In this document: positions 8,878-39,435 of the stretch, piece by piece
Layout of the letters: every line of letters begins with the position of its first letter
How positions within the stretch are numbered: position 1 is the first letter of the stretch
Origin: Candidatus Micrarchaeia archaeon
Lineage (GTDB): Archaea; Micrarchaeota; Micrarchaeia; Anstonellales; Bilamarchaeaceae
Length of the DNA: 43,502 bases
NCBI GenBank assembly: GCA_041650355.1
Contig: JBAZLI010000001.1
Location: 1-43,502, forward strand
Direction: 5' to 3'
Notes under the pieces: generated by a model
Databases searched by the model: none
What the model saw: the letters and a program-made list of their open reading frames with translations, nothing else
What the model was told of the DNA's origin: nothing
Made by a program: the position numbers and the translations under genes

Positions 8878-8950
8878 AAATCACACCTCATCCACGAACA
8901 TCATCCGTGCTTCCTTCGCGGTTTCCCGGCACGGATTATACTTTCTGTTT

Positions 8951-22071: not shown

Positions 22072-22395
22072 TCAGGAGAACCTCGTGTTGCAGGCCGGGC
22101 ATCGGAGCATGTAGTAATCCGCCCTATACCCGCATATCGGGCACACGTAGATTGTTTTCTTGGCGCGCGCGAGCTCGGCCGCGAAATCGTACTTGCACTT
22201 CACGCACCTTTCCACGTCCAGCTCGTTGAGTTCTTTGCATTTCGGGCATTTCTTCTTGAACATGCTCTTCACGTGCACGCCGCAGTGCGGGCAGCGCTCT
22301 ACATCTAAAGTTATTTCTTTTCCGCAATTCGGGCATTTGGCCTTCCAGCCCTTTCCGCCGGTTTCCTTGCCAGTTACAAGGTCCATCAAACCCAT
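22072..22395 (-). CDS. Triple zinc-ribbon protein
   Basis: 107 aa with three CxxC...CxxC pairs (CPNC/CPHC, CPKC/CVKC, CPIC/CPAC). It starts 11 nt after the stop of the giant gene. Confidence 0.7.
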   Translation of the reverse strand: MGLMDLVTGKETGGKGWKAKCPNCGKEITLDVERCPHCGVHVKSMFKKKCPKCKELNELDVERCVKCKYDFAAELARAKKTIYVCPICGYRADYYMLRCPACNTRFS

Positions 22396-22406: not shown

Positions 22407-25400
22407 CTACTTACCCTTTGGAGACTGGGTTATTGTCGGCTTTGCAGATGCAGCAGGCTGCGCCGAAGGCGTTTCTGCTTGGGGCGGTTGGGGCGGCCTG
22501 GATTTTGGTTGGACTAGGTTCACCATGTTTATTTCAAAATCCGGCATGCGCGAAGCAGGTTGCTTGAAAAGCTCTTCGTTGTCCAGCGAGCCGATTCCCA
22601 TGTGGGCAAGGTAGGAGCGCTTCTTTTCCCTTTCAGACTCGTACTCGTAAGCGAGCCTGGCTGAATCGTAGGCCGCAGACGCCTTGTACAGGGCGCCCAC
22701 AGGAGCGCTTTGTTCTATGGCAGCGCTTTCTTCTTTGGAAGGCTTGTGCCCGTGCACCAGATTGAAGCCGGCGCGCGTGTAATCCGCACTTTCCGGGTTC
22801 GAAACAGGGCCGCTCTTGCCCACTGTCACGGGCGCAAGCGTTTCCCCAGCTGGAGAGGAAAGATTGATTGTAAATGTCTCGGGGGCAGTTACAAATTCAA
22901 CCGCAGAATTGAACAGTTTCCGGTCTTTCAGCCGTTCTGCAAGTATCGCAACGTCCACGGCGGGCTTGGGTTCAGGTTCGGCTCCCTTAACCGTTTTGGC
23001 TTCCTTGACCAAGTTCGCCAGCAAGAACCTGTCCCCGGCATCGTCCCTTTCCAAGCGCCTCCCCCTGGAACCTTCGAAAACAGTGATTTTTTCTGGTTCG
23101 AGACGAACCGGGACATCGCCTGATTGCTCTCCTTTATCGGTGTAATTCTCCGTAACTATCGTCCTTGCAAGCGCCTCGGGTTTTGGGAGCTGGCCTCTGG
23201 AATTGAGGTTTACCGCGCTGGCCAAGGCGTCGCGATGGGAAGAGTTTTTTAGGTCGTATTGCTCGCCACCAATGTAGATAATTGGAGGTTCTTCTGGTTT
23301 AAGGTATTGGATTTCCACTTCGGGCCCAACTACGAGCTTATCTCTTTCATATCTGTAGGATTGGGCGTGGAACTGCGGTGAAATCGAAATTGGTTTTGCT
23401 GATTCGCTTTTCGGATCGAGCATCTGCTTGAGAATATCCCCGAAAGTGGGAACTCCCGCAAGCTTGGGCGCAAATAAATCGGTCTTCGGCATTCCGGCAG
23501 CTGAAAGCACGCTCTGTATAAGTCCGGAATTCTCGGCCTTCAGTTCCTCAGCGTTCTGCCACTCCGCCTTGCCTTTCGCATCCTGAGGAACGAGGAATTC
23601 CAAAATTCCGCCATTATTCCTTATTCTGACTTCCGATTTTTCATCTGGCTTAGAATTATCCAGGGCGATATCTACGGCCATTTCCAATGAAGTGGTCTGG
23701 GCAGACTGGTTCACTTTCTGTTCTATCCGCGCAGCAGCGGAGTGTGGAACCGAGTAAGTGATAGTTTCTTCGTGCGCGTCCGAAGCGTGCTTTTCCATAT
23801 ACTTGCGCGCAGCGTCGCGCGCCTCGTCCTTCAGCATTGCCGCAGCCATGTTCGGGGCATTTTCCGCAAGCCATTCCACACTCAAGTAGTTTTGGAGCGC
23901 TGCCTTATCTTTCTTCTCATCCCCGTAATTCCACATCCTCTGAGCCATGTGGGCGTTCGCAGAAGTGTAATCCGGTTCGGCATGACGCTCCACTGAAAGT
24001 TGTTGGGAGAGATACTGCTCTGGCTCCTTTTGGAGCGGTACGATGTATTGCTGGCTTCCTGACGCCTCGGTAAGTTTTTTGGAAAGCTCTTTCGCACTTT
24101 GCGTTGAATACAACACGCTGTCGGCGAGACCGTGGCTCAGTCCATAGAGCGCTGCCTGCAACTTAGAGTCCTCGTCCTTTGTCTGCTTCATGGCCTGATC
24201 AATAGCGCCAGTAAGATTTTGGGGGTTTTCCTTTATGCGCTCGTCATAAGTATTGAAGAATTCCTTGCTCCTAGTGCGCATGCCGTCTTCAATTTGTTCT
24301 ATCCGATTTCCTATCTCGATTTTTGAGAATCCCTGTGTCTTCAATTCCTGCTCTATGGCTGTTTGTTCGTCCTTTGTCAGGCTGGTCCTGAAGAAGGCGC
24401 TGAACACGGCAGTTTCGAACTTGGTCCTCTGGGTTTTAGGCAAACGCGCCCCCATTGCAAGCAGATCAACAAAGGTTGTTACGATCTTCTGATTTACGCG
24501 GGTTTCGGATATGCTGTGGTTTGCGGCATCGGCCATCATGCGACCGACGGTTTCGGAATCTTTTTCATCCAGTTGCTGAGACATAGATTTTACCAAACCA
24601 TCTATGACGCTTCTAGCGCCCTCGTTCGGATAAGAATAATCCGCCTTTGCTTGCCCTGCCGTGACAAGCTGCTGAACAAGCGCCTCAGAAGCTTTTTGGA
24701 ATTCCTGGTAGCTGATGCCGCGGGACTGTAGGAAGGACCTTGATTCCTGCTCGAAAATAATCCTGCTTTGTTCTGCCGGGCTGGCAGTCAATATTTCATC
24801 CACGCGCTTCTTTAGCCCGGATGAAACCGCGTCAAGTGCCGGGCTTTCTATTCCAAGGGCTTTCTGGGCTACAGACAACTGTTCGAACTGCCTGATTGTT
24901 ATGGGCTCCTGCCTCATGAGGCTGAATGAAATCCTGGCAAAATTGGCTTCGGTTTCGTTCAGCTTGGCAGTTGCTATTTTTGACTCCAGTTCGCTCTGTG
25001 CAGGTATTTTTTCTGCGACGATGTCTTTTATTATTGAGATGAGGGGCTTGCTCGCTTTGCTACGCACTAAGGAAGCGTTCAAAACCGAACTTTCCAGTCT
25101 GAGCTCGGGTTTGATGAGCAGTTCTGGGAGCATGATTTCATTCAGCACAGGAGTGGCTTCCTGCCTCGCCTTCTTGAAGTTCTCTGAGAAAACGTCGAAC
25201 GCCTGCGCAACCTGACCCAGGTAAAGCCCGTGCTTTTTCGCATACACTGCAGGATCAGCCAGGAAATCCCTGATTTTTTCCGAATCGGCAATTCCGTCTT
25301 TGCCAATGAGTTTTGCATCGCGCATTATTTTCTCCGCCTGTGCCTCGTTCATGCTCCGATTGTATATTTTGTTTGCGACCGAAGATGCGAGCATGGTTCC

Positions 25401-28400
25401 GAATATCGAGCCCACGGCAGTAGTGGCGAACACGCTGCCGAACGCCCTGCCGAAGGAAAGTCCCTGCATGTACGCCCTCTGGTTCAGGAGCTCCTGCGCG
25501 ACCCGGTAAACATTATCGCTGACCATCCCTGAGCCGCCCTTATTCGTTTGATTATAGCGCATTTGGAGGGCTTCTAAATGGGTGATTGGGTCCTCCCCCG
25601 CCTTAATCCTAGCCAGTTGTTCGGAATTTAACTTCTCTGGTGTCTGTTTTGCCTCGATGAGTTTCTGGTTGACGTCTCGGTCTATGCTGTTCACAAGGCG
25701 CACTGCTTTTACCGTGTCCTTCATTTCCATCAGGCTGGAGAATCCAGTCAGCGCAGTGATGAACCTGAATATCTGCCTTGAGAAGCTGGCTTGCTCCTGG
25801 ACACGTATTTTCCCGCCTTTTGCAAGGGACGCGATGTAAGTGGTTCCCCTTGGGCCGGCAAGAGTTATGCTCCTATTACTTTTCAGCCCCAGATTGCCAA
25901 GCTCGCTGCGCTGCTTGTCCGAGAGCTTCACGCCTATTGCTCCCAGCTGTTTTTCAATCTCCGTAGTATCCCCATATGCAACGGATTTCTTCCTGGCCGC
26001 GTCCATGCTCTGATAGACTATCCCTGCGAGCGAGCTGAGCGCCGCGCCCCGCATTCCCAGGAATCCCAGCATGCCAATCCATCCTGCTCCTGCTCCGGTT
26101 CCCATGCCGAACTGACGCGCCATGTTCGGATCCACCCTGAGCTGGGATGCTGCGGAATCCTGGACTTTTGAAACCGGCTTCGCTGGCCCGCCTTGCGCAA
26201 TCTTCGCGCCTGCGGCGGATATGTCCCCGCCGAAAAGGGTCATCGCGAGTCTGCTGCCCAGGCCGACGCCCTTGGATTCCGCGCTGGGCGCAACAAGGTT
26301 CTTTATGTTTCTGAAAGGTGCGGATTCCTGCTTTATTGTCTGCTTCACGAAGCGCACGAAGAAGCCCGGGCCTTTTGCCTGCGTTCCAGCGGCTTGCTTG
26401 CCAGCACCTGCGTCCTGTTTTGAGGCGGCCGCGCTGTCTTTTGATTTGGACTTGTCGCCCCCTATTCCGAAACTGGCGATTCTCCCCATCGTCTTGCCGA
26501 CGCTCATCATCGTCTTGCCTAAGCCGCTAGTCGGACCGGCCATCGGCTTCACTGCGGAACTCCCGACTCTGGTTCCGACTCCGGCCATGGTCTGGGTGCT
26601 CACCCTGAACCCAGTCATCATCCCCCTCGGGCTGTACCTGATGTGCCGCCCTACCCTGAGCGGGGAAAGGTCCAGGAACCCGAACGGGTTCCGTCCTGTG
26701 TAGTAAAGCGCGGCCATGAGCAGGCCGAAGAGTATGAATATCGGTATACACAGGCTCTGCTGGAGCTGCGCGTACAAGTCCTGCGCATCCGGGGATATGT
26801 CTATCTTCTTCAGCGCAGGGAGAAGGTAGTGCCTTTCCATGCTCGCCTCGGGCTGGTTGGGCATGGTTGGTATGGTGTCCACGCTGTAAATCCCGTTGGC
26901 GTCCCTGTACGCATCGTCAACTCCAGAAGCGTTGAGGCACATCTCGAAGCCGCACTCCTCGTAGAAACAGCAGTATATGAAAGAGTATTCTTTCCTAGCG
27001 TCCTTCCATCCAGAATAGTCTAAATAAGCTACGCCCTGGCCGTCGGTCACTATCTTGGTTAGGTACCTGTCAGTTGAATTCCGTATCCAAACGGCTATTG
27101 GCGCTCCAGGGACAGGCTGGCGCGTGCCGGTGCTCGCGTTGTCGAAATACAGCACTGCTTTTATCTTGTTCGCGCCGGACTGCGTGGTGAGGAGTATTGT
27201 GCTCGGATCGAAATCGTTCACGTTCTCGCACTCGTCGCAGCCGGACGGGTGGCCGTTCACAATCACGGTGCGGTATCCAGTCCCATCGTAATTCTCGGCA
27301 GAATCCAGGGCGAACACGCGGTAGCGGAACTCCCCGTTGCCGAGCTTCACGTTTATACTGCAATATTGGAATGCGCCGGAATTGGTGGGCTCGAAGCTCA
27401 TGTTGCCCATGAGCTCAGAGCTTGTCTGGTTCCAGACTTCAATTACGCAAGCGGATATGAAAGTGTGCCTGTTGTTGTCGCTTGCGCTCAGGTTGAGTGT
27501 GAAGGTGCTGGAATTCACGGTTTCGCCGTCGTAGGGATTGTAAATGCGGCTCTTGGCCTGGGAGCGCTGGCCGAACTCTATAGTGGGAACCGTGCGGTCC
27601 ACGCAGAAGTAGGCGGGTTTCGAAAGCTTGGAGACTGTGGGTGCCGGCGAATAGGAGCAGTTCACCACGAGCGGGTAGCAGCCTTCGGCGCGCGCGGTGC
27701 TTATGCCCCCTATGCCCACGGTCTCGTTCACGCCCAGCGAATCCGAGCCGGAGAGCGGCGGCATCAGGTGGCATGCGTAATTACCTGGAACCTTAGTGAG
27801 GATGGAGAACGTTATGAGCTGGTTCGGCTCCTGCGTCGCGGCTACGTATTCCTTGCGGTCGTAGCGCTCCCTTGCGTCCAGAGCCCTTCCGTTCATCGAG
27901 TCAGGGCGCACAGTGAAATCCGAGCCCTCGTGCACCGCGAGCGGGTGGGAATCGTTAAGATATTCTCCTGCGGCCACGCTGGGCGGATAGTCGCAGAAAC
28001 AGTCTCCGTCAAGGTTCTCGCACGTGTCTGAAACTCCGGTGCTGCTTGAGCTGGTCCACGCGTTCCCGCCTTTCGTGCCGCAGCCCAGTATGTTGGTACC
28101 CCCGGAGGGAGTTATGCTCGCGGCCATGTCCGTGCTTTCGTTGTCCACGAAAACCCTGCAGTCGTTGAAACGGTTGTCGTAAAAAGACGAATGGGAGCAG
28201 TTGAATAGCGACATGCACGTTCCTGCCATGGAGAAGTTGTTGCTCCACAAATCCGAGTCCGGGCAATCGAAAAGCTGGACTGCTCCGTCCCAGAAGTTCT
28301 CCATCACCGTGTTCCTGCTCACCACGAGGCGCGGGGAGTAGGAGGCGAATATGCCTGCCGCAAGGATGTTTTCAGGCTCGAACTCCGGGTTGCCGTATTT

Positions 28401-30386
28401 TGGCGGAAAATAATCGAAATTTATTATCCTGTTTTTGTTTATCGTGGCGTCTTGGGAGTTGTTGAGCAGAATCCCAATGTCAACGCTGGAGATGTTGTTG
28501 AAGCTTACACCCAGGTTGGAGGAATCGGAGCCTGCGATCGCTATCCACGCGCGGTCGATGACATTGGAGGTTACTTCGCTCTGGGAAGAGAGGTTGAGGA
28601 GCACGCTTATGTTCGAGATGTTCATTATGGAGTTCGAGCGCACGTAGACTTTCGAGCGGAAGGCGCTGATGCCTGCTTTGCTCAGCCCCACCTCACTGCT
28701 GGAGATGGTGCTGGTTCCTGAATCCGTGAGGTTCACGGCTATTTCGCTGTTGTTGTAAAGCGCTGACGAATCCACCGTGAGCTGGGACTGCTCGGCGTAA
28801 ATCCCTACTACGCTCTTCGTTATGGTGCTTCCGTTTACCATGCTGCCCCCGGAATCCAGCAGAACTAGCGAATGCTGCGGAAAGACAGGGGAAAGCATGG
28901 ACATATGGTCGGTAACGGTTGTTCTCATCATTTTGAAGCCCGGGGAGTTGTTCACTAAAACCCCCAGGGAGCTGTGGTTCACCAGGGTGTCGTTAAGGTC
29001 GAAATCCGCGGAATCCTGTATGCGCACGTTTATTGCAGGCACGTTCGCAACCGTGGAGGATGAAAGCGAGGATTGCGGCGAATCAACAGCAACAAATCCC
29101 TCCGTGGAGCCGTTCAGCCACGCGCCGGAAACGCTGGTTTTTAGTGAATTGTTAAGCAAGATCGTATAGCAGATGCCCGGCCCTGTCGGCATCGGAATCC
29201 TGACTTTGGAAATTGCTCCTTCCTGGGAATCCGCCGAATATATGCCAGAGCTAAAAGGCTGAGTGCTGCAAGGCACCCCTGAGATATTGGTGTTGATTAC
29301 GAAAAACTTATTTGAAGATATGATTGAAAAGCCGAAATCCGCGGAGCTCGCATTTGAATCGGAAATTCCGCAATTTTCGCAACTGTACAAAAGGCCGAAC
29401 GCGGACGGCGCTTCCGTGTATTGCAGGTTAAAAATTTTGGAACCCGAGATATGGACATTCTCGGAATCTTCCGTAACAAAGCCGTAAGCGCTTTGGGAGA
29501 TGCTGCTTGCTGAAACCGAAACGCCTTTGGAGGATCGGATGTTCAGCCCTGAAAAAATATTGAGCGAGAGGTTGCAGGATGACATTGCAATTCCATCATA
29601 GTTAAGGACGTAAACTCCGGTTTCCTCATTGGAATAGAAGCTTGAGCGGGCTATTTCCGCGTCCGAGCCAGAACCTGACAGACGCAGGCCCTCCTTGTTT
29701 TCATAAAATTGTGAGTCGTATATTTTTAGGCTCGACATGCCGTTTATGTCTGCACCGGCAAAGGTGCTATGGAAGAACGATGAACGGGATATCGTAAGGC
29801 CGCTGAGGTCGCCAGAAAACGTCGAAAGGCCGTACCTGAAACCGGACACGCTGCAGTTCTCAACGGTGACCCCTGAGCCTCGGACAAATATGCCGTAGCC
29901 GCACGAGCCGGAGCAGGCAATTTGTTTGTTGTTGCAGTTCAATGTCAAATCAGTGGCGTTTATTTCAAGGCAGGTTCCGCTGTCTGCAGACAAACTGTTG
30001 GCCAGCGTGCACGTCCTTCCGCTGCTTGAAGATTCTATCTTTCCGCAGGAAGTGAGCGGAACGTCGAAGTGGTTGGAGCTGCTATAGCCCATTATATTCT
30101 GCCCTCCGGAATCGGTGTAATTGCACACCACCTCCCATTCGTGGCGGCACGGCCCTATATTGCTGTAGTTGAACGTGCAATTCTGGCTCACGTTGCACAC
30201 CTGATATGCAGATATCACCGTTCCGTCCAGGGTTAGGTTGCATGTAACGTTGGTGGCCCCTGGAAAATCCATGGGGGTCCAGTTGAACGCCACGTCAGCG
30301 CCCTGCGCAGGGCTGCCAGGGGTTGTGAATGTCCTGGCCACGTATGCCGAGTGGGAAAACGCGCAAAGCAGTATGAGCAAGAGCAA
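22407..30386 (-). CDS. Giant single-pass membrane protein: signal peptide, Cys-rich parallel beta-helix ectodomain, one TM, 1428-aa Cys-free cytoplasmic domain
   Basis: 2659-aa uninterrupted ORF with a TTG start and a hydrophobic leader. PbH1/NosD-like repeats span about aa 140-760. Further beta-rich Cys-containing modules run to aa ~1190. The TM is LCIPIFILFGLLMAALYYTG (nt 26694-26753). The tail begins Gly/Met/Lys-rich, continues as a long helical K/E/Q-rich domain and ends in a Pro/Gln-rich terminus. Confidence 0.85.
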   Translation of the reverse strand: MLLLILLCAFSHSAYVARTFTTPGSPAQGADVAFNWTPMDFPGATNVTCNLTLDGTVISAYQVCNVSQNCTFNYSNIGPCRHEWEVVCNYTDSGGQNIMGYSSSNHFDVPLTSCGKIESSSSGRTCTLANSLSADSGTCLEINATDLTLNCNNKQIACSGSCGYGIFVRGSGVTVENCSVSGFRYGLSTFSGDLSGLTISRSSFFHSTFAGADINGMSSLKIYDSQFYENKEGLRLSGSGSDAEIARSSFYSNEETGVYVLNYDGIAMSSCNLSLNIFSGLNIRSSKGVSVSASSISQSAYGFVTEDSENVHISGSKIFNLQYTEAPSAFGLLYSCENCGISDSNASSADFGFSIISSNKFFVINTNISGVPCSTQPFSSGIYSADSQEGAISKVRIPMPTGPGICYTILLNNSLKTSVSGAWLNGSTEGFVAVDSPQSSLSSSTVANVPAINVRIQDSADFDLNDTLVNHSSLGVLVNNSPGFKMMRTTVTDHMSMLSPVFPQHSLVLLDSGGSMVNGSTITKSVVGIYAEQSQLTVDSSALYNNSEIAVNLTDSGTSTISSSEVGLSKAGISAFRSKVYVRSNSIMNISNISVLLNLSSQSEVTSNVIDRAWIAIAGSDSSNLGVSFNNISSVDIGILLNNSQDATINKNRIINFDYFPPKYGNPEFEPENILAAGIFASYSPRLVVSRNTVMENFWDGAVQLFDCPDSDLWSNNFSMAGTCMSLFNCSHSSFYDNRFNDCRVFVDNESTDMAASITPSGGTNILGCGTKGGNAWTSSSSTGVSDTCENLDGDCFCDYPPSVAAGEYLNDSHPLAVHEGSDFTVRPDSMNGRALDARERYDRKEYVAATQEPNQLITFSILTKVPGNYACHLMPPLSGSDSLGVNETVGIGGISTARAEGCYPLVVNCSYSPAPTVSKLSKPAYFCVDRTVPTIEFGQRSQAKSRIYNPYDGETVNSSTFTLNLSASDNNRHTFISACVIEVWNQTSSELMGNMSFEPTNSGAFQYCSINVKLGNGEFRYRVFALDSAENYDGTGYRTVIVNGHPSGCDECENVNDFDPSTILLTTQSGANKIKAVLYFDNASTGTRQPVPGAPIAVWIRNSTDRYLTKIVTDGQGVAYLDYSGWKDARKEYSFIYCCFYEECGFEMCLNASGVDDAYRDANGIYSVDTIPTMPNQPEASMERHYLLPALKKIDISPDAQDLYAQLQQSLCIPIFILFGLLMAALYYTGRNPFGFLDLSPLRVGRHIRYSPRGMMTGFRVSTQTMAGVGTRVGSSAVKPMAGPTSGLGKTMMSVGKTMGRIASFGIGGDKSKSKDSAAASKQDAGAGKQAAGTQAKGPGFFVRFVKQTIKQESAPFRNIKNLVAPSAESKGVGLGSRLAMTLFGGDISAAGAKIAQGGPAKPVSKVQDSAASQLRVDPNMARQFGMGTGAGAGWIGMLGFLGMRGAALSSLAGIVYQSMDAARKKSVAYGDTTEIEKQLGAIGVKLSDKQRSELGNLGLKSNRSITLAGPRGTTYIASLAKGGKIRVQEQASFSRQIFRFITALTGFSSLMEMKDTVKAVRLVNSIDRDVNQKLIEAKQTPEKLNSEQLARIKAGEDPITHLEALQMRYNQTNKGGSGMVSDNVYRVAQELLNQRAYMQGLSFGRAFGSVFATTAVGSIFGTMLASSVANKIYNRSMNEAQAEKIMRDAKLIGKDGIADSEKIRDFLADPAVYAKKHGLYLGQVAQAFDVFSENFKKARQEATPVLNEIMLPELLIKPELRLESSVLNASLVRSKASKPLISIIKDIVAEKIPAQSELESKIATAKLNETEANFARISFSLMRQEPITIRQFEQLSVAQKALGIESPALDAVSSGLKKRVDEILTASPAEQSRIIFEQESRSFLQSRGISYQEFQKASEALVQQLVTAGQAKADYSYPNEGARSVIDGLVKSMSQQLDEKDSETVGRMMADAANHSISETRVNQKIVTTFVDLLAMGARLPKTQRTKFETAVFSAFFRTSLTKDEQTAIEQELKTQGFSKIEIGNRIEQIEDGMRTRSKEFFNTYDERIKENPQNLTGAIDQAMKQTKDEDSKLQAALYGLSHGLADSVLYSTQSAKELSKKLTEASGSQQYIVPLQKEPEQYLSQQLSVERHAEPDYTSANAHMAQRMWNYGDEKKDKAALQNYLSVEWLAENAPNMAAAMLKDEARDAARKYMEKHASDAHEETITYSVPHSAAARIEQKVNQSAQTTSLEMAVDIALDNSKPDEKSEVRIRNNGGILEFLVPQDAKGKAEWQNAEELKAENSGLIQSVLSAAGMPKTDLFAPKLAGVPTFGDILKQMLDPKSESAKPISISPQFHAQSYRYERDKLVVGPEVEIQYLKPEEPPIIYIGGEQYDLKNSSHRDALASAVNLNSRGQLPKPEALARTIVTENYTDKGEQSGDVPVRLEPEKITVFEGSRGRRLERDDAGDRFLLANLVKEAKTVKGAEPEPKPAVDVAILAERLKDRKLFNSAVEFVTAPETFTINLSSPAGETLAPVTVGKSGPVSNPESADYTRAGFNLVHGHKPSKEESAAIEQSAPVGALYKASAAYDSARLAYEYESEREKKRSYLAHMGIGSLDNEELFKQPASRMPDFEINMVNLVQPKSRPPQPPQAETPSAQPAASAKPTITQSPKGK
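28107..29969 (-). repeat. Right-handed parallel beta-helix (PbH1-type) repeat region within the giant protein
   Basis: Segments of ~22-25 aa recur with the pattern (N/S)xx(I/V)xxSx(I/F/V)xxNxxxG(I/V), for example ENCSVSGFRYGLS, ISRSSFFHSTFAGADI and IARSSFYSNEETGVYV. Confidence 0.7.
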
Positions 30387-30402
30387 TATTTTCTTTATGT
30401 CA

Positions 30403-33400
30403 TCACCCGGTCTTGCATTCTATAAGGTAATCCTTTATCGGGAGCTGGACGCCGCAGAACTCGCCGCTGTCTTTGTTGAGCCCGCAGTCCAGAGACTCAT
30501 TCCCGGATTTCGGGAAGCGCACAGGTGTCACGGTCATGCCCTCCCCGACGCTCTTGCTGTAAGTGTAATTGTAGATCTGGCTGGTCTGTGGGTCCACATA
30601 GCTCAGGCAGCATCTTTGCTCCTTGGGCATGCTCGCGATTATGTCCCCGTAGAGCTGGTCGAGCTCATTTATCTGGAACAGGGCGGTGCTGGTGCTGTCG
30701 TCCGGGTATGTGTAGGTGCAGCTGAGTTTCGCGTCGCCGTAGTTTGCGCAAGGCGTGCACGGCTCAACCGCGGTGTTGAACTGGCATCTGTAGCCGTCGT
30801 GGGAAGCTGCGCCCGCGGGAAGCGTGCATTCCACTCCGTTCTCGCAGGCCGGGTCGCACTGGCCGAATTGGATTTCAGTGTCCGTGCACTTGACGCACTT
30901 CGCCTCGTCGCTGGTGCTCGCGACCGTTGCTATCTCGTTTACCAGCGTCTTCCTCTTTATCGGATTGAGGTAGATGTTTATGGCTTTCTGGATTGCGCAG
31001 AACTTTTCATCCTTGAACGTGGGCGGCCTGCCGGAAGAGCCGGCCATGGGGGTTACGAGAGATTCGTTGTCGTTCCTGAACCATTTCTTGTAAAAGAGCG
31101 CGAACTGCCCGCTGTTCACCAAGTCGGTTTGGTTGCCCAGCAGGTATTTCATCGCACTTAGGGTATCGTTGTACGCTTCCCAGCCATTGGCACTGTCGTC
31201 TATAACGAAGTTGTACGGGAAGCTTGGCTTCCCGAAATTGGCGAGCATGTTCCTGCTAGTCTCTGTGGAGGCGTCCAGTATGGCCTTTTCCCTGTCCGCG
31301 CCAGCGGCATCGTTGGCCCTGAAATCGTACACTATGACGTCTACGTAATATCCGGCCGGGACGCTGGTTGCAGAGCAGGAGTACGGGCTGTTGCATCCGA
31401 GCGCCTTCGCGAGCTTGGTCACGTTCGCGTTTTGGGAATACACTGCTGCAAGGCAGTTCGGGCAGTTCCCCTGCTCCTTGAGCATGATGGAGCGGTTCCT
31501 GAGCACGAGCTGGTCCATGTCGTCCGTGCCTATTATGACTATGGATGCGCTGTTGCCTATCGCGCGGCCGAGGAAATGGTAGTAGCCGGTCCAGTTGCAG
31601 GTCATATGCTTAACGTTGTAGGACCACCATCCCAGTTCAACGGCCTGCTCTCCTTCAGTCCCTTCTGGCGGGTCCGCGTAAGAATCGCCCCCGGGCGAGC
31701 CGAACTCGCCCATGTCGTAATTGCTTTCTGCCCCTGACGCGGTTATTGGGGAGGGGCATTTGATTTTCTCGTCGTATTTGCGCGGGTTCCTGTTGGTGGC
31801 GCAGTCGGTTTCCTCATCCTCGAAGAAAGGAGATGCGTCAGGGACATAGTAGAAATAGTTCCCGAGAAGGATGTTCCTGATGGAGCTTTCCATGTCATCC
31901 ACATAGGGCTCTATGTCCTGGGCGCGTATGCGGCAGTTGTGGTAAGTCTCGTAGGTGCCTGACTGGGCTTCCGCATAACCCAGGGTTCCGTTCACGTACC
32001 AGACCACTGGTATAACTCCTGCTTTGTGGTAGTTGTCCACCCGGTTCCTGAGCAGTGCCAGGTTCTCCATGTAATCATTTACCTTCTTTCCGCAGAGCTC
32101 GCAGCCGCCCATGTCGTCCATCACTCCCACTGCTACTCCCTGCATGTCGTTGCACGTGGTCGCAGGGCAGTTGAAGACATAGGGGAGCGTCTGCCCTGTG
32201 GAAGGAATGACGCGCTGGTATTTCTTGAAATAGTAATCCAGGTCTATCCCAACCATGGTGGCGAGGGTGCATGAGTCGCACCAGCCGTATGTGTTGTCCA
32301 GCTTCAGGAAGCTGTCTATCGCGAGGCCGAAAACCCCATCATCGGGCTTGCACGCCCCTAAATCCGAGATGTTTATTTTCTGCCCGCCTTCGCCGGCCGC
32401 CACATTGTACCCGGGATGGCAGGAGCGGTAGAGGAACGTCTGGGTGAAATTGTCCTCGTTCATGTACGCTTCCCCTATCGCGTTGCCGTGTTCGCTCTTG
32501 TTCGTGAAAAACAAGATGGGGTCCGCGTCCTTTACCGTGCCGTCCGCGGAGGTGTACGTGGCGCGCTCGACGCCCCACGTGTCGTTCACCATGTAGGGCT
32601 CGCAGTAAACTGCGTTTCCAGGCCTGGCCCTCATTCCAACTTCGTAGCAGAGGCAGTTTTTTAGGCCGTTGCTGCTGTCTACGCAGAAGGAGCGCTCGTA
32701 GCCTGAATCTTCTTTCATGCACAGCCCGGAAAGGCAGTCCCCGGAACTGCTGCACTCGAAGTCCATCATTTCAGTGGAATCCATGCTGGAGGCATCCGCA
32801 AGATAGGCTTCGAGAAGGTTTTCCTTGTAGAACCTGTTGGCTGGCATCACGTAAGAGGTAGCGAACTGACCTGTGCCCTCGGTGAACGTGGTCATCACGT
32901 ACTGGCCGCTGGGCGCAGGTGCGAAATCCAGGTTTCCATCCTGGCTGCATACTGAGCGGTTGTTGAGCGTGCACGGGTCGAAGCGCCTCGGGTCTCCGGA
33001 AAAGTCCAGGCGGAAGCCGTCGTACGAGTAGGAGAAGGTGCCTGACTGGGCGCCACTGGCACTGCACTGCCCCGGAAGCTGGATTGCACCGCCTGTTGTC
33101 GAGGCTGAACCAAGGCTGCAGGCGCCGCCGCTGAAGCCAGCAGTGAGCGTCAGCGAACCCGGCTCGAAATGACCTGGAAGGACTTCCAATTCGTGCCATT
33201 CGCCGTGCTGGAAGTCCCCGGAAGTAGTGGACGGCCCCTTGCCGCCGATAAACGAGGGGTTGCTTGCCTGGCAGTTGTCGTGCCACCATTTTTCATCCAG
33301 CGGCGTGTCGCCGGTGTTGAACGCGGTATCCGTAACGAGGAGATGCGCCCCGTCAGCTTTGTAATCGACCATTATGTATATCAGTTCATCTGTGCAGAGC

Positions 33401-34281
33401 TGGCCGTTCCCGCTTCCGCTCACGTGCGTCTGTGTGTAGGATGCGCCCGCGCCAGCACTAAGGTTCAGATAGTTCATGTACCTGTCTCTTATGCTGCACA
33501 TAGCATCCTCGGCTGCCCCCGGCAGGTCAGGCACGAAGCCGCACCACCTGTCGCTTAGAGGGAAATAGTACCTTCCCTCTTCAAAATCGGAAATGCTTTC
33601 CCCGATTCCGAACCTGTATGAGTTTACGAATATCCCGCTCCCCTTCTTGAGTTTCTTCATGGTCTTGTTGTCTAAAGTGTAGAAGTTGCACATCGCGTTA
33701 TATAGATTAATAGTGTACGAAGAGCCGAGGTTCTGGTACATGGGGTTCTTCGCGGGCTCTGGAAGGAAGGAGTGCTGGGGCGAGTATTTTATGTTCCCGC
33801 ACAGCATGGTCTTGCAATCCGTATCAATGCCCATCTCGCTGCGCTCGGTGCAAATCGGAACCGAGTAATTGTAACTCTGGTCCGGCGCGCTCTCGTTCAC
33901 CGCGTTTATGAAGCAATAGCCGATGTTGTTGCACGGGTGCGAAGTGTTCGAGGGGGAATAGTTGCTGCAGTCCAGCACGCTGTATCCTGAAGTGGTGTAT
34001 TTGATGTATATTGTTTCGTTGCGCCCAGGGGTGGAATTCGCGAGCGTGCAGAACCGCGTCGTGCATTTCAGCCCGTTCGAGAGCGTGTTCCCGTTGCACA
34101 ATTCCTCAGACCCTGAGGAATCAGGAGGGTCGTCAGGGCCTGGCTGTGTGTAGAGGTTGCACGTGCCCTGGAGCGCGTCCGCGAGCTTGCAGCACGGGCC
34201 GTTCATGTTCGGCGTGAAACAGCCCAGGAGCAGGAGCAGGGCGAAAGCCGAAACTGCGAGCGCAATCCTTCCCATGGTCAT
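30403..34281 (-). CDS. Large Cys-rich secreted protein with lipobox-like signal
   Basis: ATG 34281 overlaps the upstream stop (ATGA). The N-terminus MTMGRIALAVSAFALLLLLGC looks like a signal peptide with a lipobox-like Cys. The protein is ~1292 aa with about 60 Cys by manual count, many N-x-S/T sequons and no other TM. The 80 upstream ORF codons were rejected. Confidence 0.8.
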   Translation of the reverse strand: MTMGRIALAVSAFALLLLLGCFTPNMNGPCCKLADALQGTCNLYTQPGPDDPPDSSGSEELCNGNTLSNGLKCTTRFCTLANSTPGRNETIYIKYTTSGYSVLDCSNYSPSNTSHPCNNIGYCFINAVNESAPDQSYNYSVPICTERSEMGIDTDCKTMLCGNIKYSPQHSFLPEPAKNPMYQNLGSSYTINLYNAMCNFYTLDNKTMKKLKKGSGIFVNSYRFGIGESISDFEEGRYYFPLSDRWCGFVPDLPGAAEDAMCSIRDRYMNYLNLSAGAGASYTQTHVSGSGNGQLCTDELIYIMVDYKADGAHLLVTDTAFNTGDTPLDEKWWHDNCQASNPSFIGGKGPSTTSGDFQHGEWHELEVLPGHFEPGSLTLTAGFSGGACSLGSASTTGGAIQLPGQCSASGAQSGTFSYSYDGFRLDFSGDPRRFDPCTLNNRSVCSQDGNLDFAPAPSGQYVMTTFTEGTGQFATSYVMPANRFYKENLLEAYLADASSMDSTEMMDFECSSSGDCLSGLCMKEDSGYERSFCVDSSNGLKNCLCYEVGMRARPGNAVYCEPYMVNDTWGVERATYTSADGTVKDADPILFFTNKSEHGNAIGEAYMNEDNFTQTFLYRSCHPGYNVAAGEGGQKINISDLGACKPDDGVFGLAIDSFLKLDNTYGWCDSCTLATMVGIDLDYYFKKYQRVIPSTGQTLPYVFNCPATTCNDMQGVAVGVMDDMGGCELCGKKVNDYMENLALLRNRVDNYHKAGVIPVVWYVNGTLGYAEAQSGTYETYHNCRIRAQDIEPYVDDMESSIRNILLGNYFYYVPDASPFFEDEETDCATNRNPRKYDEKIKCPSPITASGAESNYDMGEFGSPGGDSYADPPEGTEGEQAVELGWWSYNVKHMTCNWTGYYHFLGRAIGNSASIVIIGTDDMDQLVLRNRSIMLKEQGNCPNCLAAVYSQNANVTKLAKALGCNSPYSCSATSVPAGYYVDVIVYDFRANDAAGADREKAILDASTETSRNMLANFGKPSFPYNFVIDDSANGWEAYNDTLSAMKYLLGNQTDLVNSGQFALFYKKWFRNDNESLVTPMAGSSGRPPTFKDEKFCAIQKAINIYLNPIKRKTLVNEIATVASTSDEAKCVKCTDTEIQFGQCDPACENGVECTLPAGAASHDGYRCQFNTAVEPCTPCANYGDAKLSCTYTYPDDSTSTALFQINELDQLYGDIIASMPKEQRCCLSYVDPQTSQIYNYTYSKSVGEGMTVTPVRFPKSGNESLDCGLNKDSGEFCGVQLPIKDYLIECKTG

Positions 34282-35354
34282 ATCACTCTCGATGCAAGCC
34301 TGTAAATCTCCTGGCTCTCCCCTCCGAACAACGTCGTTAGATAGCGCACGAATATCAGCGTTATGCTTAAAATCACTATTGGCTGGAGTATGAGGCCGTA
34401 ATAGAGCTTGGACAGTTCCGCGGCGCCCTCGTTTATGCTCACTGCACCGAAAAAGTCCGAGCCGGTCTGGGTCTGGGGCGCCATGGTAATTATGGATACC
34501 GCGCCGCTGAAGGTGGGCCACGGGAAAGTGATTGCCGAGGGGTCGGAAAGGTCCACGTACATGCCCGGCACCTTGATGAAGCTCGGGTCGGTTATCACGA
34601 ACAGGAACGGGAAGATTATGTAGAAGCCCAGGGCTAGCGCTATGAAGAACGCGCCTATGCCCCGCGTGAACGGTATCGCGCGCAGCACTATCCCTATGGG
34701 GAGGAACATTGTGAGCATGTTCGCTGAGATGTAATGTATCGCTCCTATATAGGCGTTCAGCGCTATCAGGAGGAGCACGGATATGTGCGCCAGCATGCGG
34801 TAGCTTTCAATCTGGGTATAAAGCTGCGAGATTTGGGTCTGCCAGATGTAGGCGCCCTGCATGTATATCGGTATCCCGAAAAGGCCCCACATGAGCCCGA
34901 ATTTCTTGAACGGGTCGCGGGCTGAGAAATATATGCGCTCGTAGAGCATGGTCATGTAGGTCGCTTTCTCGGTGAGCTTGCATTCCACGAAGTCGAACGG
35001 ATTGACTCCGCTGGAAAGCTCTATCTTGCCGTACATGTCGCAGCTCACGCTGGCTCCGCTGAAATAGAGCAGCATGACCTGGAAAATGCCGTTCAGTATC
35101 ACGAGCACCATCACCGCGAGGAGCGCGGTGAAGAGCGCGTCGTAGAGGTGGCTCTTCGTGCTCCGCTTGAGCTCCTCCACGTTGAACGCGTAGGCCAGCA
35201 TGTACACGAGCCCGTAGAAGAAAATCACCACCATCATGGACAGCACTACCATGGTGCCCCAGCCGCCCATCCAGTCCACGAACTCGGTGCCTGAAAACCC
35301 GGTTATCACACCGCCAAGGCCGGTTTCTGGACTAGGGTAATAAGACATAATCAC
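34278..35354 (-). CDS. Polytopic membrane protein, paralog F of the cluster family
   Basis: 358 aa and multi-TM. It has the family signature LPIGIVLRAIPFTRGIGAFFIALALGFYIIFP and the C-terminal tail GGESQEIYRLASRVI. GTG 35354 overlaps the upstream stop; an alternative ATG is at 35348. Confidence 0.8.
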   Translation of the reverse strand: MIMSYYPSPETGLGGVITGFSGTEFVDWMGGWGTMVVLSMMVVIFFYGLVYMLAYAFNVEELKRSTKSHLYDALFTALLAVMVLVILNGIFQVMLLYFSGASVSCDMYGKIELSSGVNPFDFVECKLTEKATYMTMLYERIYFSARDPFKKFGLMWGLFGIPIYMQGAYIWQTQISQLYTQIESYRMLAHISVLLLIALNAYIGAIHYISANMLTMFLPIGIVLRAIPFTRGIGAFFIALALGFYIIFPFLFVITDPSFIKVPGMYVDLSDPSAITFPWPTFSGAVSIITMAPQTQTGSDFFGAVSINEGAAELSKLYYGLILQPIVILSITLIFVRYLTTLFGGESQEIYRLASRVI

Positions 35355-38300: not shown

Positions 38301-38506
38301 GGCGCGCTGTAGTCGCTCGGGCTGGTGCTTCCGGCCAGCAGGTAAGCGTCTGATGTTTTTATCATGGTTGAAAGCGAAGATGCACCTGAACCCGGGAACG
38401 TCCTGTTCCACTCCACGCCGAAAATGGCGAACGAGGATGAGGAGAGCAGGGCCGCGGCTAGCAGGAGCACGAATGCCTTTCCGCCTGCAAACTCCGTTGT
38501 CATCAT
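35351..38506 (-). CDS. Paralog E: signal peptide, 7-blade beta-propeller-like repeats, 4 Ig-like repeats and the family membrane module
   Basis: ATG 38506 overlaps the upstream stop (ATGA). The protein is 1051 aa. The C-terminal ~315 aa carry the signature FPIAIVTRSLPFMRGFGSILLAVLFALYVVYP and the tail GEEIDLSRLTQMV. The upstream 191 ORF codons overlap paralog D and were rejected. Confidence 0.85.
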   Translation of the reverse strand: MMTTEFAGGKAFVLLLAAALLSSSSFAIFGVEWNRTFPGSGASSLSTMIKTSDAYLLAGSTSPSDYSAPSDIYVVKTDLSGNLVWQKTFGGSGIDQGNGIIETPGGYVVAGSTESFGAVGSDAWIIALDRNGNHLWNVTYGGAGGQAAISVVAGPGGYVAVGYTAPAFYSDVLLFKVDESSHAVDWSKTFGGSQSDLAREIVALPDGYAVLGDITPPGSFNSDFWLIRTDLAGTHLWNRTYGESDGWEYGNSLISIPGGFVLAGDKYLGIYIVKTAGNGDVVWEKAYEFSSATRANSITQIPDGGYVLGGQGAGCSGTGAMISKLDSEGNMTANETFRGVNSISAVIPLSDTSYVAAGATSYSSPTPYSMWLAGINTYPDPNLTIQSPLEAGVYPPFTPIELNYTAAGFNICEYAVDNGPYKSLANCSNATPTGLGVGNHTVKVHARDQNCHSAIVNVTFQITSNALSLQVQSPVQKVYNVTAARLNYTVKLASSCWYTLDGGASVNLPNCWNATLASLAEGRHALAVYATNGTTIVNVTVNFTVDSVPPAISIASPEGKTYYQSSIPLQYSISENASCSYALDSGGPIPLPSCMNITLGSLSSLPHTVTVSARDSAGNTASASVSFVVDTAAPLALTINSPVSGQNVTSTPVHVDYDVSGAVRCSWKLNSGPETDVECGGPITLDPSDGTHTLHVYAFSAAGGMMQREVVFEVSSSGQPGGSGFFCSQDFYTVLNENIYPVSLLAGILAAMIIGLVFAASQALSDPKLSVWSRTEAVQLVMSAAFIFIMIVLLNSFCLFTVADMASIVGAASTSSASVYEGAEAYLLRAAKLSHVAILENRYYLGAINIEEVYSTWKCPLWCFLSIGGTGASTSPQAGASYMSSGFMLLMNSATLSFFSAFMHIFFLKYVGSGLFLFMFPIAIVTRSLPFMRGFGSILLAVLFALYVVYPSILAVLYATVGSTDPDLINIPAPHLESSLKVSANAFSGGGYNGPEVQPGDMAFAAGISMKAFFYSVLLPTMALLGAAAAAAYVGRLMGEEIDLSRLTQMV
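36365..37366 (-). repeat. Four tandem ~83-aa Ig-like repeats with a conserved Cys pair
   Basis: Each unit opens with L(T/S)(I/V)xSP, contains C(E/W/S)(Y/W)x(L/V)(D/N)xG...(N/S/E)C, and ends with V(T/N/S/V)F. Confidence 0.75.
37382..38419 (-). repeat. Seven ~50-aa beta-propeller-type (SBBP-like) repeats
   Basis: The pattern W(N/Q/S/E)(R/K/V)T(F/Y)GG...GGY(V/A)(V/L)AG recurs at WNRTF, WQKTF, WNVTY, WSKTF, WNRTY and WEKAY, plus a degenerate seventh (ANETF). Confidence 0.7.
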
Positions 38507-39435
38507 ATCAGCCTGCCCAAAGCGTGAACGTCCACCTCTGCCCCCGCGATGGAGGAAAGGTACCTTATGGAAATGACCGCGACCGCGAGCGAAACCACCA
38601 CGCACAGCGTGGCGTCCATTATCGCGTAGTACAGGAGCGGGCGTATTATGGCGTCGCGGTTTTGTATCGCGCCCTGGAACGTCGCTATGGCCGCGTTCTC
38701 GTTGCCTGTCCCCTGGATCGCGTAGTGATCGCACGATTGGACGTTTATGGGCGAGGGGTCCGAGACTGGAACGCTCGGGTCCGCAATTATGCCGTGAAGG
38801 TAGCTGTAAGTTATGGGCATCACGACGTAAAACGCGAGCCCCACCGCCATCAGGAGCCCGCCTGCGCCCCGCGTGTACTTGAACGTGCGCATGAAGAGGC
38901 CGAGCGGGAAGAAGAGCGTGAATATGTACGTCTCGGCGAAATCCATCAGGAACATCATGCCCTGGAGCTCTGCGAGCGCGGTCGCGGTGAGCTGGAAGCC
39001 CAGTGAAAGCGCCGGGCCAAGCATCCTGAATCCCGAGCAGGAGCTGACGCCGAAGCCCGCGGCAGAGAAGCTGCACCATATGGACTTGCTCCCTTCCTTC
39101 CCGAGTTCCATCGCGGCTTTTCCGAGTATGCCGTTTATATCGGTTATCTTGTCTATCGTGGCGCCCACGTCCGCAGTGGCGCTTATGTGCGCGCCCTGCA
39201 CGATGGGCTGCACCACTGCTATGAATCCGGCCACCATGACCGCGGTGATCATCACCTGGAACAGTTCCTCTTTTGCAAGGAATTTCAATTCGTTGGATTC
39301 AATGCCATAGCCTACTGCGAACAATATGCCGAGCGCAGCGACCGACGCGAGTATCGCCACTATGCTGAGGTCCTGCCACGCAGACTGGGCAAAGGCAAGC
39401 GGAACCAGCAGGAGCGCGAGCATCAGTTTTTTCAT
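38503..39435 (-). CDS. Polytopic membrane protein, paralog D
   Basis: 310 aa with the signal peptide MKKLMLALLLVPLAFA. The signature is FPLGLFMRTFKYTRGAGGLLMAVGLAFYVVMP and the tail is GAEVDVHALGRLI. The ATG abuts the upstream TGA. Confidence 0.85.
   Translation of the reverse strand: MKKLMLALLLVPLAFAQSAWQDLSIVAILASVAALGILFAVGYGIESNELKFLAKEELFQVMITAVMVAGFIAVVQPIVQGAHISATADVGATIDKITDINGILGKAAMELGKEGSKSIWCSFSAAGFGVSSCSGFRMLGPALSLGFQLTATALAELQGMMFLMDFAETYIFTLFFPLGLFMRTFKYTRGAGGLLMAVGLAFYVVMPITYSYLHGIIADPSVPVSDPSPINVQSCDHYAIQGTGNENAAIATFQGAIQNRDAIIRPLLYYAIMDATLCVVVSLAVAVISIRYLSSIAGAEVDVHALGRLI

Follow-up and report, generated by a model that had tools for sequence, protein, structure and literature searches.

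A predicted type-I membrane protein with a cysteine-rich ectodomain and a cysteine-free 1428-residue tail, encoded beside seven membrane-protein-type genes in a Candidatus Micrarchaeia archaeon

Gene H and its features

We report on the gene content of a stretch of 43,502 nucleotides (nt) from a Candidatus Micrarchaeia archaeon (GenBank assembly GCA_041650355.1, contig JBAZLI010000001.1, positions 1 to 43,502; the whole stretch is referred to as the window), with emphasis on gene H, an open reading frame (ORF) at 22407..30386 on the minus strand that encodes 2659 amino acids (aa). Gene H is the last of eight genes, A to H, and our data suggest that its product might be part of a cell-envelope complex encoded by these genes. 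A sequence-only reading of the window, made with no database searches, had described H as a giant protein with a cysteine (Cys)-rich part outside the cell that is dense in N-x-S/T sequons and includes a parallel beta-helix, one transmembrane (TM) helix, and a very large Cys-free tail inside. Here we compare H with its relatives (proteins are numbered P, loci L and alignments A). One of these, P0001, is used throughout and derives from a metagenome-assembled genome (MAG) labelled 'Candidatus ainarchaeum sp.' (NCBI taxon genus Iainarchaeum, DPANN group).

Gene H and its predicted parts are as follows (KD, Kyte-Doolittle hydropathy):

22407..30386, minus strand: gene H, predicted type-I membrane protein of 2659 aa, last gene of the A-H module
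30336..30398, minus strand: signal-peptide-like N-terminus, (I/M)KKI-LLLLILLCAFSHSAYVA, from the sequence, with a hydropathy of 1.63 and similar ortholog starts
30042..30335, minus strand: N-terminal Cys-rich and sequon-rich module, aa 18-115, by sequence also present in P0003, P0005 and P0007
28107..30041, minus strand: right-handed parallel beta-helix, ~aa 116-760, matched by Pfam Beta_helix and NosD
27240..28106, minus strand: middle ectodomain, aa 761-1049, with Cys residues, no database match, and well conserved with P0001 from aa 875
26754..27239, minus strand: family-core ectodomain, aa 1050-1211, the best-matched profile region in almost all of the 150 listed relatives
26694..26753, minus strand: single TM helix, aa 1212-1231, KD 2.15; Cys1213, invariant throughout the family, marks the outer boundary
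26553..26693, minus strand: juxtamembrane signature, G-R-N-P-F-G-F-x-D-x-S-P-L-R-V-G-R-H-I-R-Y-S-P-R-G, in which G, N and P are invariant and basic residues cluster
26091..26552, minus strand: low-complexity linker rich in Gly, Ser, Ala, Lys and Met, aa 1279-1432, net charge +0.10 per residue
26010..26090, minus strand: hydrophobic (G-x-x)n segment, GAGAGWIGMLGFLGMRGAALSSLAGIV, aa 1433-1459, KD 1.48 (aa 1439-1457), conserved in P0001, P0003 and P0007
25371..25466, minus strand: second hydrophobic Gly-rich segment, QGLSFGRAFGSVFATTAVGSIFGTMLASSV, aa 1641-1672, KD 1.50 (aa 1652-1670), conserved with P0001
22410..25370, minus strand: distal tail, aa 1673-2659, with a basic C-terminus rich in Pro, Gln, Ala and Lys

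Start codon and composition of gene H

The listed start codon of gene H is the TTG at 30386. It is preceded in frame by ATA-AAG-AAA-ATA (I-K-K-I) at 30387-30398 and, since I-K-K-I would supply a canonical signal-peptide n-region, translation may in fact begin at the ATA at 30398. This would place gene H 4 nt past the stop codon of gene G, while the listed TTG leaves a gap of 16 nt. The N-termini of two orthologs, MRKSILFLVALFALSFA and MMIKKILALALLLVASAYA, are of the same style.

The divided composition of the 2659-aa ORF is evident, with 38 Cys residues and 38 sequons ahead of the TM helix and no Cys in the tail. Of the 39 Cys residues in total, 38 fall within aa 8-1150; the last one, aa 1213, is in the TM helix itself. 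None is in the tail, as read earlier. With uniform placement, the probability that 39 of 39 fall within the first 1213 residues is 5e-14, and the probability of zero Cys in the 1428 residues of the tail (aa 1232-2659) is 9e-6 at a Cys content of 0.81%, the rate in nine cytoplasmic proteins of the same window. The sequons in the ectodomain are indeed dense, about twice the number expected after shuffling (38 versus 19.1 ± 3.8; 0 of 2000 shuffles reach 38), and the tail carries 11 compared to 6.7 expected (P = 0.06). We interpret the Cys/sequon split as mainly a signature of outside versus inside, while the extra depletion of Cys in the tail is a property of the whole family (see below).

The argument for a different tail that can be made from the GC content is weak. 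The tail-coding DNA had been suggested to be lower in GC, and it does dip to 0.50-0.51 at 23-26 kb and has a lower GC content at third codon positions (GC3; 0.60 compared to 0.69 for the ectodomain). The means for the whole regions are, however, 0.532 for the tail and 0.540 for the ectodomain, and the ectodomain also dips, to 0.497 at 29-30 kb. Likewise, antisense ORFs are shorter over the tail (the longest is 193 aa, versus 260 aa over the ectodomain), as proposed, but the difference is marginal.

Integrity of gene H

Both the abrupt change in composition at the TM helix and the shift in GC3 across it (0.69 versus 0.60) would fit an artefact in which a frameshift, a mis-assembly or a fusion near 26.7 kb joins a beta-helix gene to an unrelated cytoplasmic gene. 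We consider this extremely improbable. The junction, i.e. the stalk, the TM helix and the juxtamembrane region, is conserved more strongly than any other part of the protein and is continuous in P0001, P0003, P0005, P0007 and ~200 others. The question raised by the sequence-only reading of whether ectodomain and tail always co-occur can be answered likewise, in that ~200 relatives keep ectodomain, TM helix and tail joined in one protein. Moreover, an identical gene H protein is present in two independent assemblies (P0002 from JGI and P0151 from NCBI/ENA), so that the window protein recurs on a second assembly of 65 kb. With continuous relatives and a second assembly, a chimeric join is effectively refuted and there is no sign of a frameshift near 26.7 kb.

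P0001 aligns with the gene H protein from residue 875 and unbroken through stalk, TM helix and tail. At its locus (L001), a beta-helix gene fragment is located upstream on the same contig and a ten-N scaffold gap at L001 1860-1880 splits the gene calls; as the calls are separated by nothing but this run of N, the L001 ortholog is also one gene.

Membrane topology

The TM helix at aa 1212-1231 has a KD mean of 2.15 over 19 residues and is the sole segment beyond the N-terminus above 1.6, in keeping with the one helix read earlier at nt 26694-26753. No K or R is found in the 15 residues before the helix and 6 R are present in the 30 residues after it. Because of the signal-peptide-like N-terminus, the N-terminal Cys residues and sequons, the K/R charge bias and a like pattern in 119 relatives, a type-I topology with the tail inside, as initially proposed, is supported at the level of sequence features.

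A different topology would follow if aa 1433-1459 and 1641-1672 formed extra spans or a re-entrant hairpin, with ~aa 1460-1640 extracellular and the protein polytopic. The two segments reach KD values of 1.48-1.50 and are kept in P0001, a similar, moderately hydrophobic Gly-rich segment is located 150-210 residues past the TM helix in most relatives, and two sequons (aa 1504 and 1612) lie between the segments. Both segments are nevertheless under the usual threshold of 1.6 and the first one has a conserved Arg mid-way; among 124 long-tailed relatives, 25 lack any segment that exceeds KD 1.2, there are zero Cys between the segments, and the density of sequons in the tail is at chance level family-wide. 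A polytopic H is, in our view, rather improbable.

Ectodomain

The beta-helix is well supported, since both Pfam Beta_helix (PF13229; 100.5 bits over 6 stretches, cutoff 25.9) and Pfam NosD (PF05048; 84.8 bits over 4 stretches, cutoff 23.6) score well above their gathering cutoffs, in agreement with the PbH1/NosD-like fold first assigned by eye; a further beta-helix stretch is present at aa 677-751. The extension is confined to a small clade comprising the window protein, P0001, P0003 and P0005-P0008. Most family members are without it and, as judged from these comparisons, the beta-helix is a lineage-specific accessory add-on. In this lineage the ectodomain is enlarged by ~1000 aa, consisting of the sequon-rich beta-helix plus other modules. 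A role for H in nitrous-oxide reductase maturation, as for NosD, was considered and rejected: TIGR04247 gave 39.4 bits against a cutoff of 300, and no nos genes were present among the scanned ORFs of the window.

The family-core ectodomain consists of a CxxC motif, a beta-sandwich-like segment, 'YFDN.S...RQP...TD..G.A...Y', a Cys knot, 'YCC/YCPF...CGF..C', and a stalk. Its Cys columns are invariant or near-invariant in alignments A4 and A8; A4 is a core alignment of 26 sequences that opens with the window protein. A CarboxypepD_reg-like segment that had been suggested here (aa ~1080-1125) was not confirmed, as no Pfam match to this domain was obtained on aa 663-1211 even at E<=1; with the family profile A4 against PDB there was a weak, motif-level match of 25 residues to the collagen adhesin 6fwv (Cna-type; E=0.01).

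The GRNPF-tail family

Relatives were identified in an exhaustive HMMER search using a profile of gene H aa 875-1690 plus P0001, which gave 200 representatives of sequence clusters with E<=1e-3, of which 132 have E<=1e-10. Almost all are matched over the equivalent of ~aa 1050-1335 of gene H, located at residues ~20-320 of the relative. The typical member is 950-1400 aa long and has a signal peptide, an ectodomain of ~200 aa, one TM helix and a long tail; its core ectodomain carries a CxxC, a beta-sandwich-like segment ('YYEN.S...RQP...TD..G.A.F') and a 'YCPF...CGF..C' knot. Another group has an ectodomain of 415-500 aa with ~10% Cys.

The TM region has the consensus '..C(L/F)PL..IF.LL.G.LY.TG(R/K)NPF.GF....R.GRHIRY.ARGRG', in which the Cys, Gly, Asn and Pro are invariant; the window protein, C1213 ... 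GRNPFGFLDLSPLRVGRHIRYSPRG, fits this motif. The Cys1213 column is invariant in alignments A4, A7 and A8, and a G-[RK]-N-P-[FLM] followed by a basic R.G[RK]H[IV][RK]Y motif is found in 139 of the 151 family proteins retrieved. The tails are 700-1400 aa long and nearly Cys-free: for 119 members the Cys content is 4.69% in the ectodomains versus 0.15% in the tails (118,522 tail residues), the latter ~5x below that of ordinary cytoplasmic proteins of this window, and the number of sequons per 100 aa is 1.90 versus 0.45.

In the source databases the relatives are named 'hypothetical', 'Uncharacterised protein', 'NosD domain-containing' or 'parallel beta-helix repeat protein', and the organisms named among them are Ca. 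Micrarchaeota or 'ainarchaeum' (P0001). On the basis of the alignments we define the family, which we refer to as GRNPF-tail, by the TM/juxtamembrane core and the long tail, and not by the beta-helix. The window protein has all of its characteristics, i.e. the Cys-rich core, the TM helix with its motif, a low-Cys tail of at least 600 aa and the adjacent genes A-G.

The tail

Four parts of the tail are conserved between the window protein and P0001: the juxtamembrane region; FVKQT.KQE.APFRN.KNLVAP...LFGGDISA, within which the linker motif FVKQTIKQESAPFRNIKNLVAP...LFGGDISA (aa 1343-1392) is kept; GWIG.LGF.GMR.AA..SLA; and SRQIF.F..ALTG together with the second Gly-rich segment. Past residue ~1700 the identity is low, and the alignment of aa 1420-2619 is 24% identical overall. 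Two glycine-zipper-like stretches had been noted in this part of the protein. Both exist, but their KD values of 1.48 and 1.50 are sub-threshold and the first has Gly at every third position (G-WI-G-ML-G-FL-G-MR-G) rather than a GxxxG zipper; this pattern and its conserved Arg are the same in P0001, P0003 and P0007, and aa 1433-1459 possibly form a membrane-associated helix.

The sequence-only reading had also drawn attention to the size of the cytoplasmic tail, which is indeed unusually large and without annotation. There was no Pfam match at E<=0.01 and, for three tail pieces searched at E<=1, only sub-threshold noise (the best being DUF445, 21 bits versus a cutoff of 34); NCBIfam and PHROGs gave no match, nor did PDB (best E=0.83). 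No Pfam domain was common to the tails of 33 diverse full-length relatives, and self-BLAST of the tail revealed no internal repeats. An identity as an SMC or other coiled-coil ATPase, or as a phage tape-measure protein, was rejected, as no match to such a family was obtained with Pfam, PHROGs or PDB; a match to a common family of this kind had been named beforehand as a result that would count against a novel tail.

P0001 was the sole relative found in a word-indexed protein search with the tail, and a scan of genome contigs returned only the MAG contig that carries P0001. With jackhmmer and BLAST against 130 family tails, the window tail matched P0001 and, weakly, P0008 only. Compared to the profile of the major-subfamily tail (hhalign), it gave a non-significant E=0.06 over 26 residues at the second Gly-rich segment. 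In this largest subfamily the tail is homologous over ~900 aa in 48 of 131 members and, because of this, the major-subfamily tail is a real domain and not an unconstrained spacer. In a PDB profile search the major subfamily matched designed helical-repeat proteins alone (E >= 0.005), as a generic helical architecture would allow. An AlphaFold2 (AF2) model of aa 1420-2619 of the window protein, based on a two-sequence alignment, has a mean predicted local distance difference test (pLDDT) score of 34.6 and a predicted TM-score (pTM) of 0.25, with helices to ~aa 2135 followed by mostly coil and few strands. A polybasic C-terminus was considered as a family trait and rejected as being a tendency only: the median net charge of the C-terminal 30 residues is +2, and it is +3 or more in 35% of the members.

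The A-H module

Seven genes precede gene H:

42746..43502 (cut by the window end), minus strand: gene A, paralog; orthologs are ~385-395 aa
41670..42749, minus strand: gene B, paralog of 359 aa
39436..41673, minus strand: gene C, paralog of 745 aa with a large Cys-rich insert predicted to be extracellular
38503..39435, minus strand: gene D, paralog of 310 aa
35351..38506, minus strand: gene E, 1051 aa, of which the C-terminal ~330 aa are the paralog core
34278..35354, minus strand: gene F, polytopic membrane protein of 358 aa, paralog
30403..34281, minus strand: gene G, Cys-rich, lipoprotein-like protein of 1292 aa with a lipobox-like N-terminus, MTMGRIALAVSAFALLLLLGC

According to BLAST, A-F are six paralogous polytopic membrane proteins that share 'P.G...R..PFTRG.GG.L.A...G.Y...P' and have acidic C-termini, 'GGE.D...L.R(L/V)I'. 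After refinement of the starts, A-G overlap by 4 nt or abut and the refined starts give signal peptides. The listed ORFs of G, E, C and B extend upstream by 80-240 Arg/His-rich codons (34282-34521, 38507-39079, 41674-42384 and 42750-43175, respectively); these 5' extensions look like out-of-frame read-through over the preceding gene and not coding sequence. For A-G there was no significant match in Pfam, NCBIfam or PHROGs, apart from weak Ig-like and beta-propeller signals in E. The 35 homologs of gene F are all 'hypothetical' and originate from Micrarchaeota, Micrarchaeia or uncultured archaea. Its AF2 model (pLDDT 74, pTM 0.69) is an all-helical bundle of very long helices, and Foldseek gave no match to it in PDB (best E 0.65, TM-score about 0.2). 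No ATPase gene is present within the module at any examined locus. VirB6/TrbL-type secretion subunits were rejected as an identity for A-F, as the A-F paralogs scanned gave no Pfam or NCBIfam match, and no Foldseek match at E<0.6 and no module ATPase were found.

Loci with the module were found in Micrarchaeota/Iainarchaeum-labelled MAGs and on unlabelled metagenome contigs. One-to-one orthologs in the order A-B-C-D-E-F(-G), with H adjoining, are present at L003 (a contig of 404 kb), L006, L007 and L008. Locus L004 has F-G-H only, as orthologs confirmed by sequence, and L009 and the P0007 locus have genes of matching size and order (a comparison of size and position only). Gene G orthologs adjoin H family members at L003, L004, L007 and L008, and the G-type lipoproteins are 1300-1800 aa across loci. 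The position of H relative to the module varies (same strand downstream, same strand upstream, or divergent), and H adjoins A-F or F-G in every examined locus with enough flank. Because H adjoins seven other membrane-protein-type genes, it is probably part of a cell-envelope machine. In the open literature we found no description of the GRNPF-tail family or of the A-H module.

Gene E differs between loci: its N-terminal ~720 aa give weak matches to a beta-propeller-like region (SBBP-type repeats) plus an Ig-like extension, and its orthologs or positional counterparts at six other loci are 328-513 aa. Since the counterparts of E are short elsewhere, it appears that this lineage enlarged two outer-side subunits, E and H. 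The GC3 of gene G, 0.495, is below that of all others among the 17 genes and segments measured (the rest range between 0.60 and 0.80, with the H tail, at 0.60, next); this could be due to composition, expression level or fast evolution. At the distant locus L004 (positions 1-2846) a gene for an STT3/AglB-type oligosaccharyltransferase is located close upstream of F-G-H, which fits with sequon-rich ectodomains.

The gene downstream of H and rates of divergence

Gene H is followed by a small gene on the same strand:

22072..22395, minus strand: soluble zinc-ribbon protein of 107 aa with six CxxC pairs (~3 zinc ribbons), 11 nt downstream of H; Pfam DZR, E=1.8e-10

The zinc-ribbon gene follows H in four of four loci of the beta-helix clade (the window, L001, the P0007 locus and L009). 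In other clades (L003, L007 and L008) a PadR-family gene of ~105 aa is located directly after the H homolog. The small protein after H is probably nucleic-acid-binding and may be a partner or a regulator. The sequence-only reading had suggested that H is coupled to an internal scaffold or cytoskeleton-like partner, possibly this protein. Its position after H is fixed in all four clade loci, but PadR takes this place elsewhere and the family-wide constant, and with it the conserved partners of H, are primarily A-G; nothing was found that points to a cytoskeleton-like partner.

To compare rates of change we used the window genome and the P0001 genome, which are close relatives. The loci are syntenic past H (zinc-ribbon gene, 190-aa gene, aTrm56, DUF1405 and hexapeptide transferase), and the amino acid identities are:

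zinc-ribbon protein: 93%
aTrm56: 82%
Na+/H+ antiporter: 82%
189-aa protein: 78%
hexapeptide transferase: 76%
DUF1405: 75%
gene H, stalk to juxtamembrane region: 60-77%
gene H, beta-helix: 36%
gene H, distal tail: 24-28%

Hence, the beta-helix and the distal tail of gene H evolve far faster than the six neighbouring genes (75-93%). That a presumed cytoplasmic domain diverges as fast as an exposed surface is unexpected, and both relaxed constraint and diversifying selection would fit.

The fast divergence of the distal tail, which has neither repeats nor a known domain, is also what would be expected if H were a stand-alone adhesin whose tail is a largely disordered spacer under little constraint and without a specific partner, with no functional link to the membrane-protein genes next to it. 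The very low AF2 confidence for the tail and the shifts in position and orientation of H relative to A-G between loci point in the same direction. However, H adjoins A-F or F-G at all examined loci with enough flank, the genes A-G overlap tightly with a gap of 16 nt before H, and the tail of the major subfamily is conserved over ~900 aa. Moreover, the TM/juxtamembrane signature is near-invariant over ~200 clusters, which implies a specific membrane-embedded partner of H. Taken together, we find the stand-alone adhesin unlikely.

A further possibility is membrane-tethered signalling, where the tail would hold and release the downstream zinc-ribbon or PadR protein such that surface contact alters gene expression; parallels are the anti-sigma factors and membrane-tethered regulators. 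Here H would still be a subunit of the envelope complex, this being a special case. It would be consistent with the small zinc-ribbon gene after H in all four clade loci and PadR in three others, with the conservation of the zinc-ribbon protein (93%, versus ~24-28% for the tail), and with this protein being soluble and having six CxxC pairs. On the other hand, known tethering domains are much smaller than the tails of this family (700-1400 aa), the fast divergence of the tail is odd for a protein with a 93%-conserved partner unless only the membrane-proximal motifs bind, and the adjacency may reflect an operon regulator. We regard this mechanism as quite unlikely.

A putative envelope complex

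The reading that we favour, with modest confidence, is that H represents a single-pass type-I subunit of an undescribed eight-gene envelope complex in Micrarchaeota/Iainarchaeum-labelled DPANN archaea; for any particular role in the cell our confidence is much lower. In such a complex A-F would form a hetero-oligomeric membrane core; since six distinct paralogs are kept in a fixed order, fixed positions of A-F in one assembly are suggested. H would dock beside or within this core via its near-invariant TM helix and basic juxtamembrane patch, and the basic inner patch might bind the acidic 'GGE.D...L.R.I' C-termini of A-F. The boundary residue Cys1213 might be disulfide-bonded or lipid-modified. 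Gene G together with the ectodomains of C, E and H would build an outward structure, in which the beta-helix might be a quickly evolving surface that binds ligands or the host. The tail would act as a long, mainly helical and rapidly diverging cytoplasmic arm with its Gly-rich hydrophobic helices on or in the inner leaflet, and may link the surface structure to cytoplasmic partners, the candidates being the zinc-ribbon protein in this clade or the PadR-like protein in other clades.

Several points weigh against this reading. Complex formation by A-H is suggested by synteny, and a host-binding role of the beta-helix by analogy. H is divergent in L003 and L008, and A-E are not adjacent in L004. 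The type-I topology is inferred from hydropathy, charge, Cys and sequons, and the two Gly-rich hydrophobic segments of the tail could span the membrane and put ~190 aa outside. A helical tail is weakly supported, as the AF2 model of the tail, with its mean pLDDT of 34.6, is unreliable and the other support, composition-level PDB matches to designed helical-repeat proteins, concerns the major subfamily rather than the window protein. Charge-hydropathy shows no clear disorder and TOP-IDP is likewise not decisive; for this reason, intrinsic disorder of the tail is not claimed. Finally, a single tail family would be an architectural concept, since the tail of the window clade has no detectable similarity in sequence to that of the major subfamily.

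The eight-gene complex may be extended to a trans-envelope machine for host contact in Micrarchaeota/Iainarchaeota, with A-F as a pseudo-hexameric ring, G and the ectodomains facing outward, the beta-helix setting host specificity, and the tail as a scaffold or relay to the zinc-ribbon or PadR protein. This elaborate version is speculative and has a low probability. Candidate roles for such a machine would be the barrel-shaped platform under the ARM-1 surface layer (S-layer) or a cytoplasmic-bridge pore.

Comparison with known systems

As far as the libraries searched are concerned, the A-H module and the core and tail of H appear unrelated to described systems, and their function is read from gene order and sequence. 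The ectodomain of H resembles PbH1/NosD surface proteins, including bacterial beta-helix adhesins, in having a predicted ~650 aa extracellular beta-helix that is sequon-rich and fast-evolving. These adhesins are anchored by a beta-barrel, a sortase signal or a short anchor, whereas H would be anchored by a TM helix and a tail of 1428 aa. Compared to NosD, gene H is without nos operon context, and the beta-helix is missing from most of its own family.

In TolQ-TolR-TolA and ExbB-ExbD-TonB, a single-pass protein with a long helical extension rich in Ala, Lys and Glu acts beside oligomeric polytopic subunits, and the long tail of gene H encoded beside the polytopic A-F may be seen as analogous to TolA/TonB. 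The polarity is opposite, as the extension of H is predicted to be cytoplasmic and its N-terminal domain outside, and A-F are six distinct paralogs compared to the homo-pentamer of TolQ/ExbB. A tether of the TolA/TonB type was rejected, since A-G gave no Pfam match to MotA_ExbB or ExbD, Foldseek of F against TolQ gave E=3.7, and the extension follows the positive-inside face.

Eukaryotic type-I adhesion receptors, e.g. integrin beta4, are known for very large cytoplasmic tails. By analogy H would share with them an ectodomain that is glycosylated and rich in disulfides, a single TM helix and a ~1000-aa tail through which contacts outside could be coupled to structures inside; there is no kinship in sequence or domains. 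Among DPANN archaea, the SPEARE proteins of Nanohaloarchaeota are very large surface proteins with protease, adhesion and nuclease domains. They are similar to H in being giant, surface-exposed and lineage-specific, but none of these domains was found in gene H with Pfam and, as generally described, SPEARE proteins have no stated counterpart of the A-G module, the GRNPF signature or the Cys-free tail.

DPANN archaea live attached to other archaea, and large envelope assemblies have been seen in this group of organisms. In the Micrarchaeota ARM-1, electron cryo-tomography (cryo-ET) revealed a barrel-shaped platform of 21 nm under the S-layer, with no components named in the accessible part of that report (bioRxiv 10.1101/2024.05.20.594898), and an attachment organelle was observed by cryo-ET in the Nanobdellota YN1, the component proteins of which are stated to be unknown (PMC11420986). 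A-H, known here from the genes, would provide eight co-encoded envelope proteins as concrete candidates for such DPANN contact-site structures. The S-layer protein of Micrarchaeota is reported to be an MSTP-like beta-sandwich (bioRxiv 10.1101/2024.05.28.596244); an identity of H as an S-layer protein was rejected, as no S-layer family match was obtained (SlpA_D2 at E=0.12, in the tail only) and a TM helix with a huge tail is unlike the S-layer proteins described in that work. The design of H, with a predicted glycosylated and disulfide-rich surface domain, one helix and a cytoplasmic tail of ~1000-1400 aa, is unreported in prokaryotes as far as our searches go. If the module is a host-contact apparatus, host recognition and specificity in this phylum would become directly testable and, if it is not, it would still represent a phylum-wide membrane complex without assigned function in genomes with few genes to spare.

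Other genes in the window

The remainder of the window is ordinary archaeal chromosome, with genes for FttA/aCPSF1, a proteasome subunit, Sua5, pyruvoyl arginine decarboxylase and aTrm56. Scans of the window for tRNA genes and with Rfam gave no match. On the minus strand at 6088-9745 there are genes for a MacB/FtsX-type permease (6088-7311), a 485-aa CARDB/NPCBM-associated Ig-like protein (7420-8877) and an ATP-binding cassette (ABC) ATPase (8951-9745), which look like a second and unrelated envelope-associated transporter cluster.

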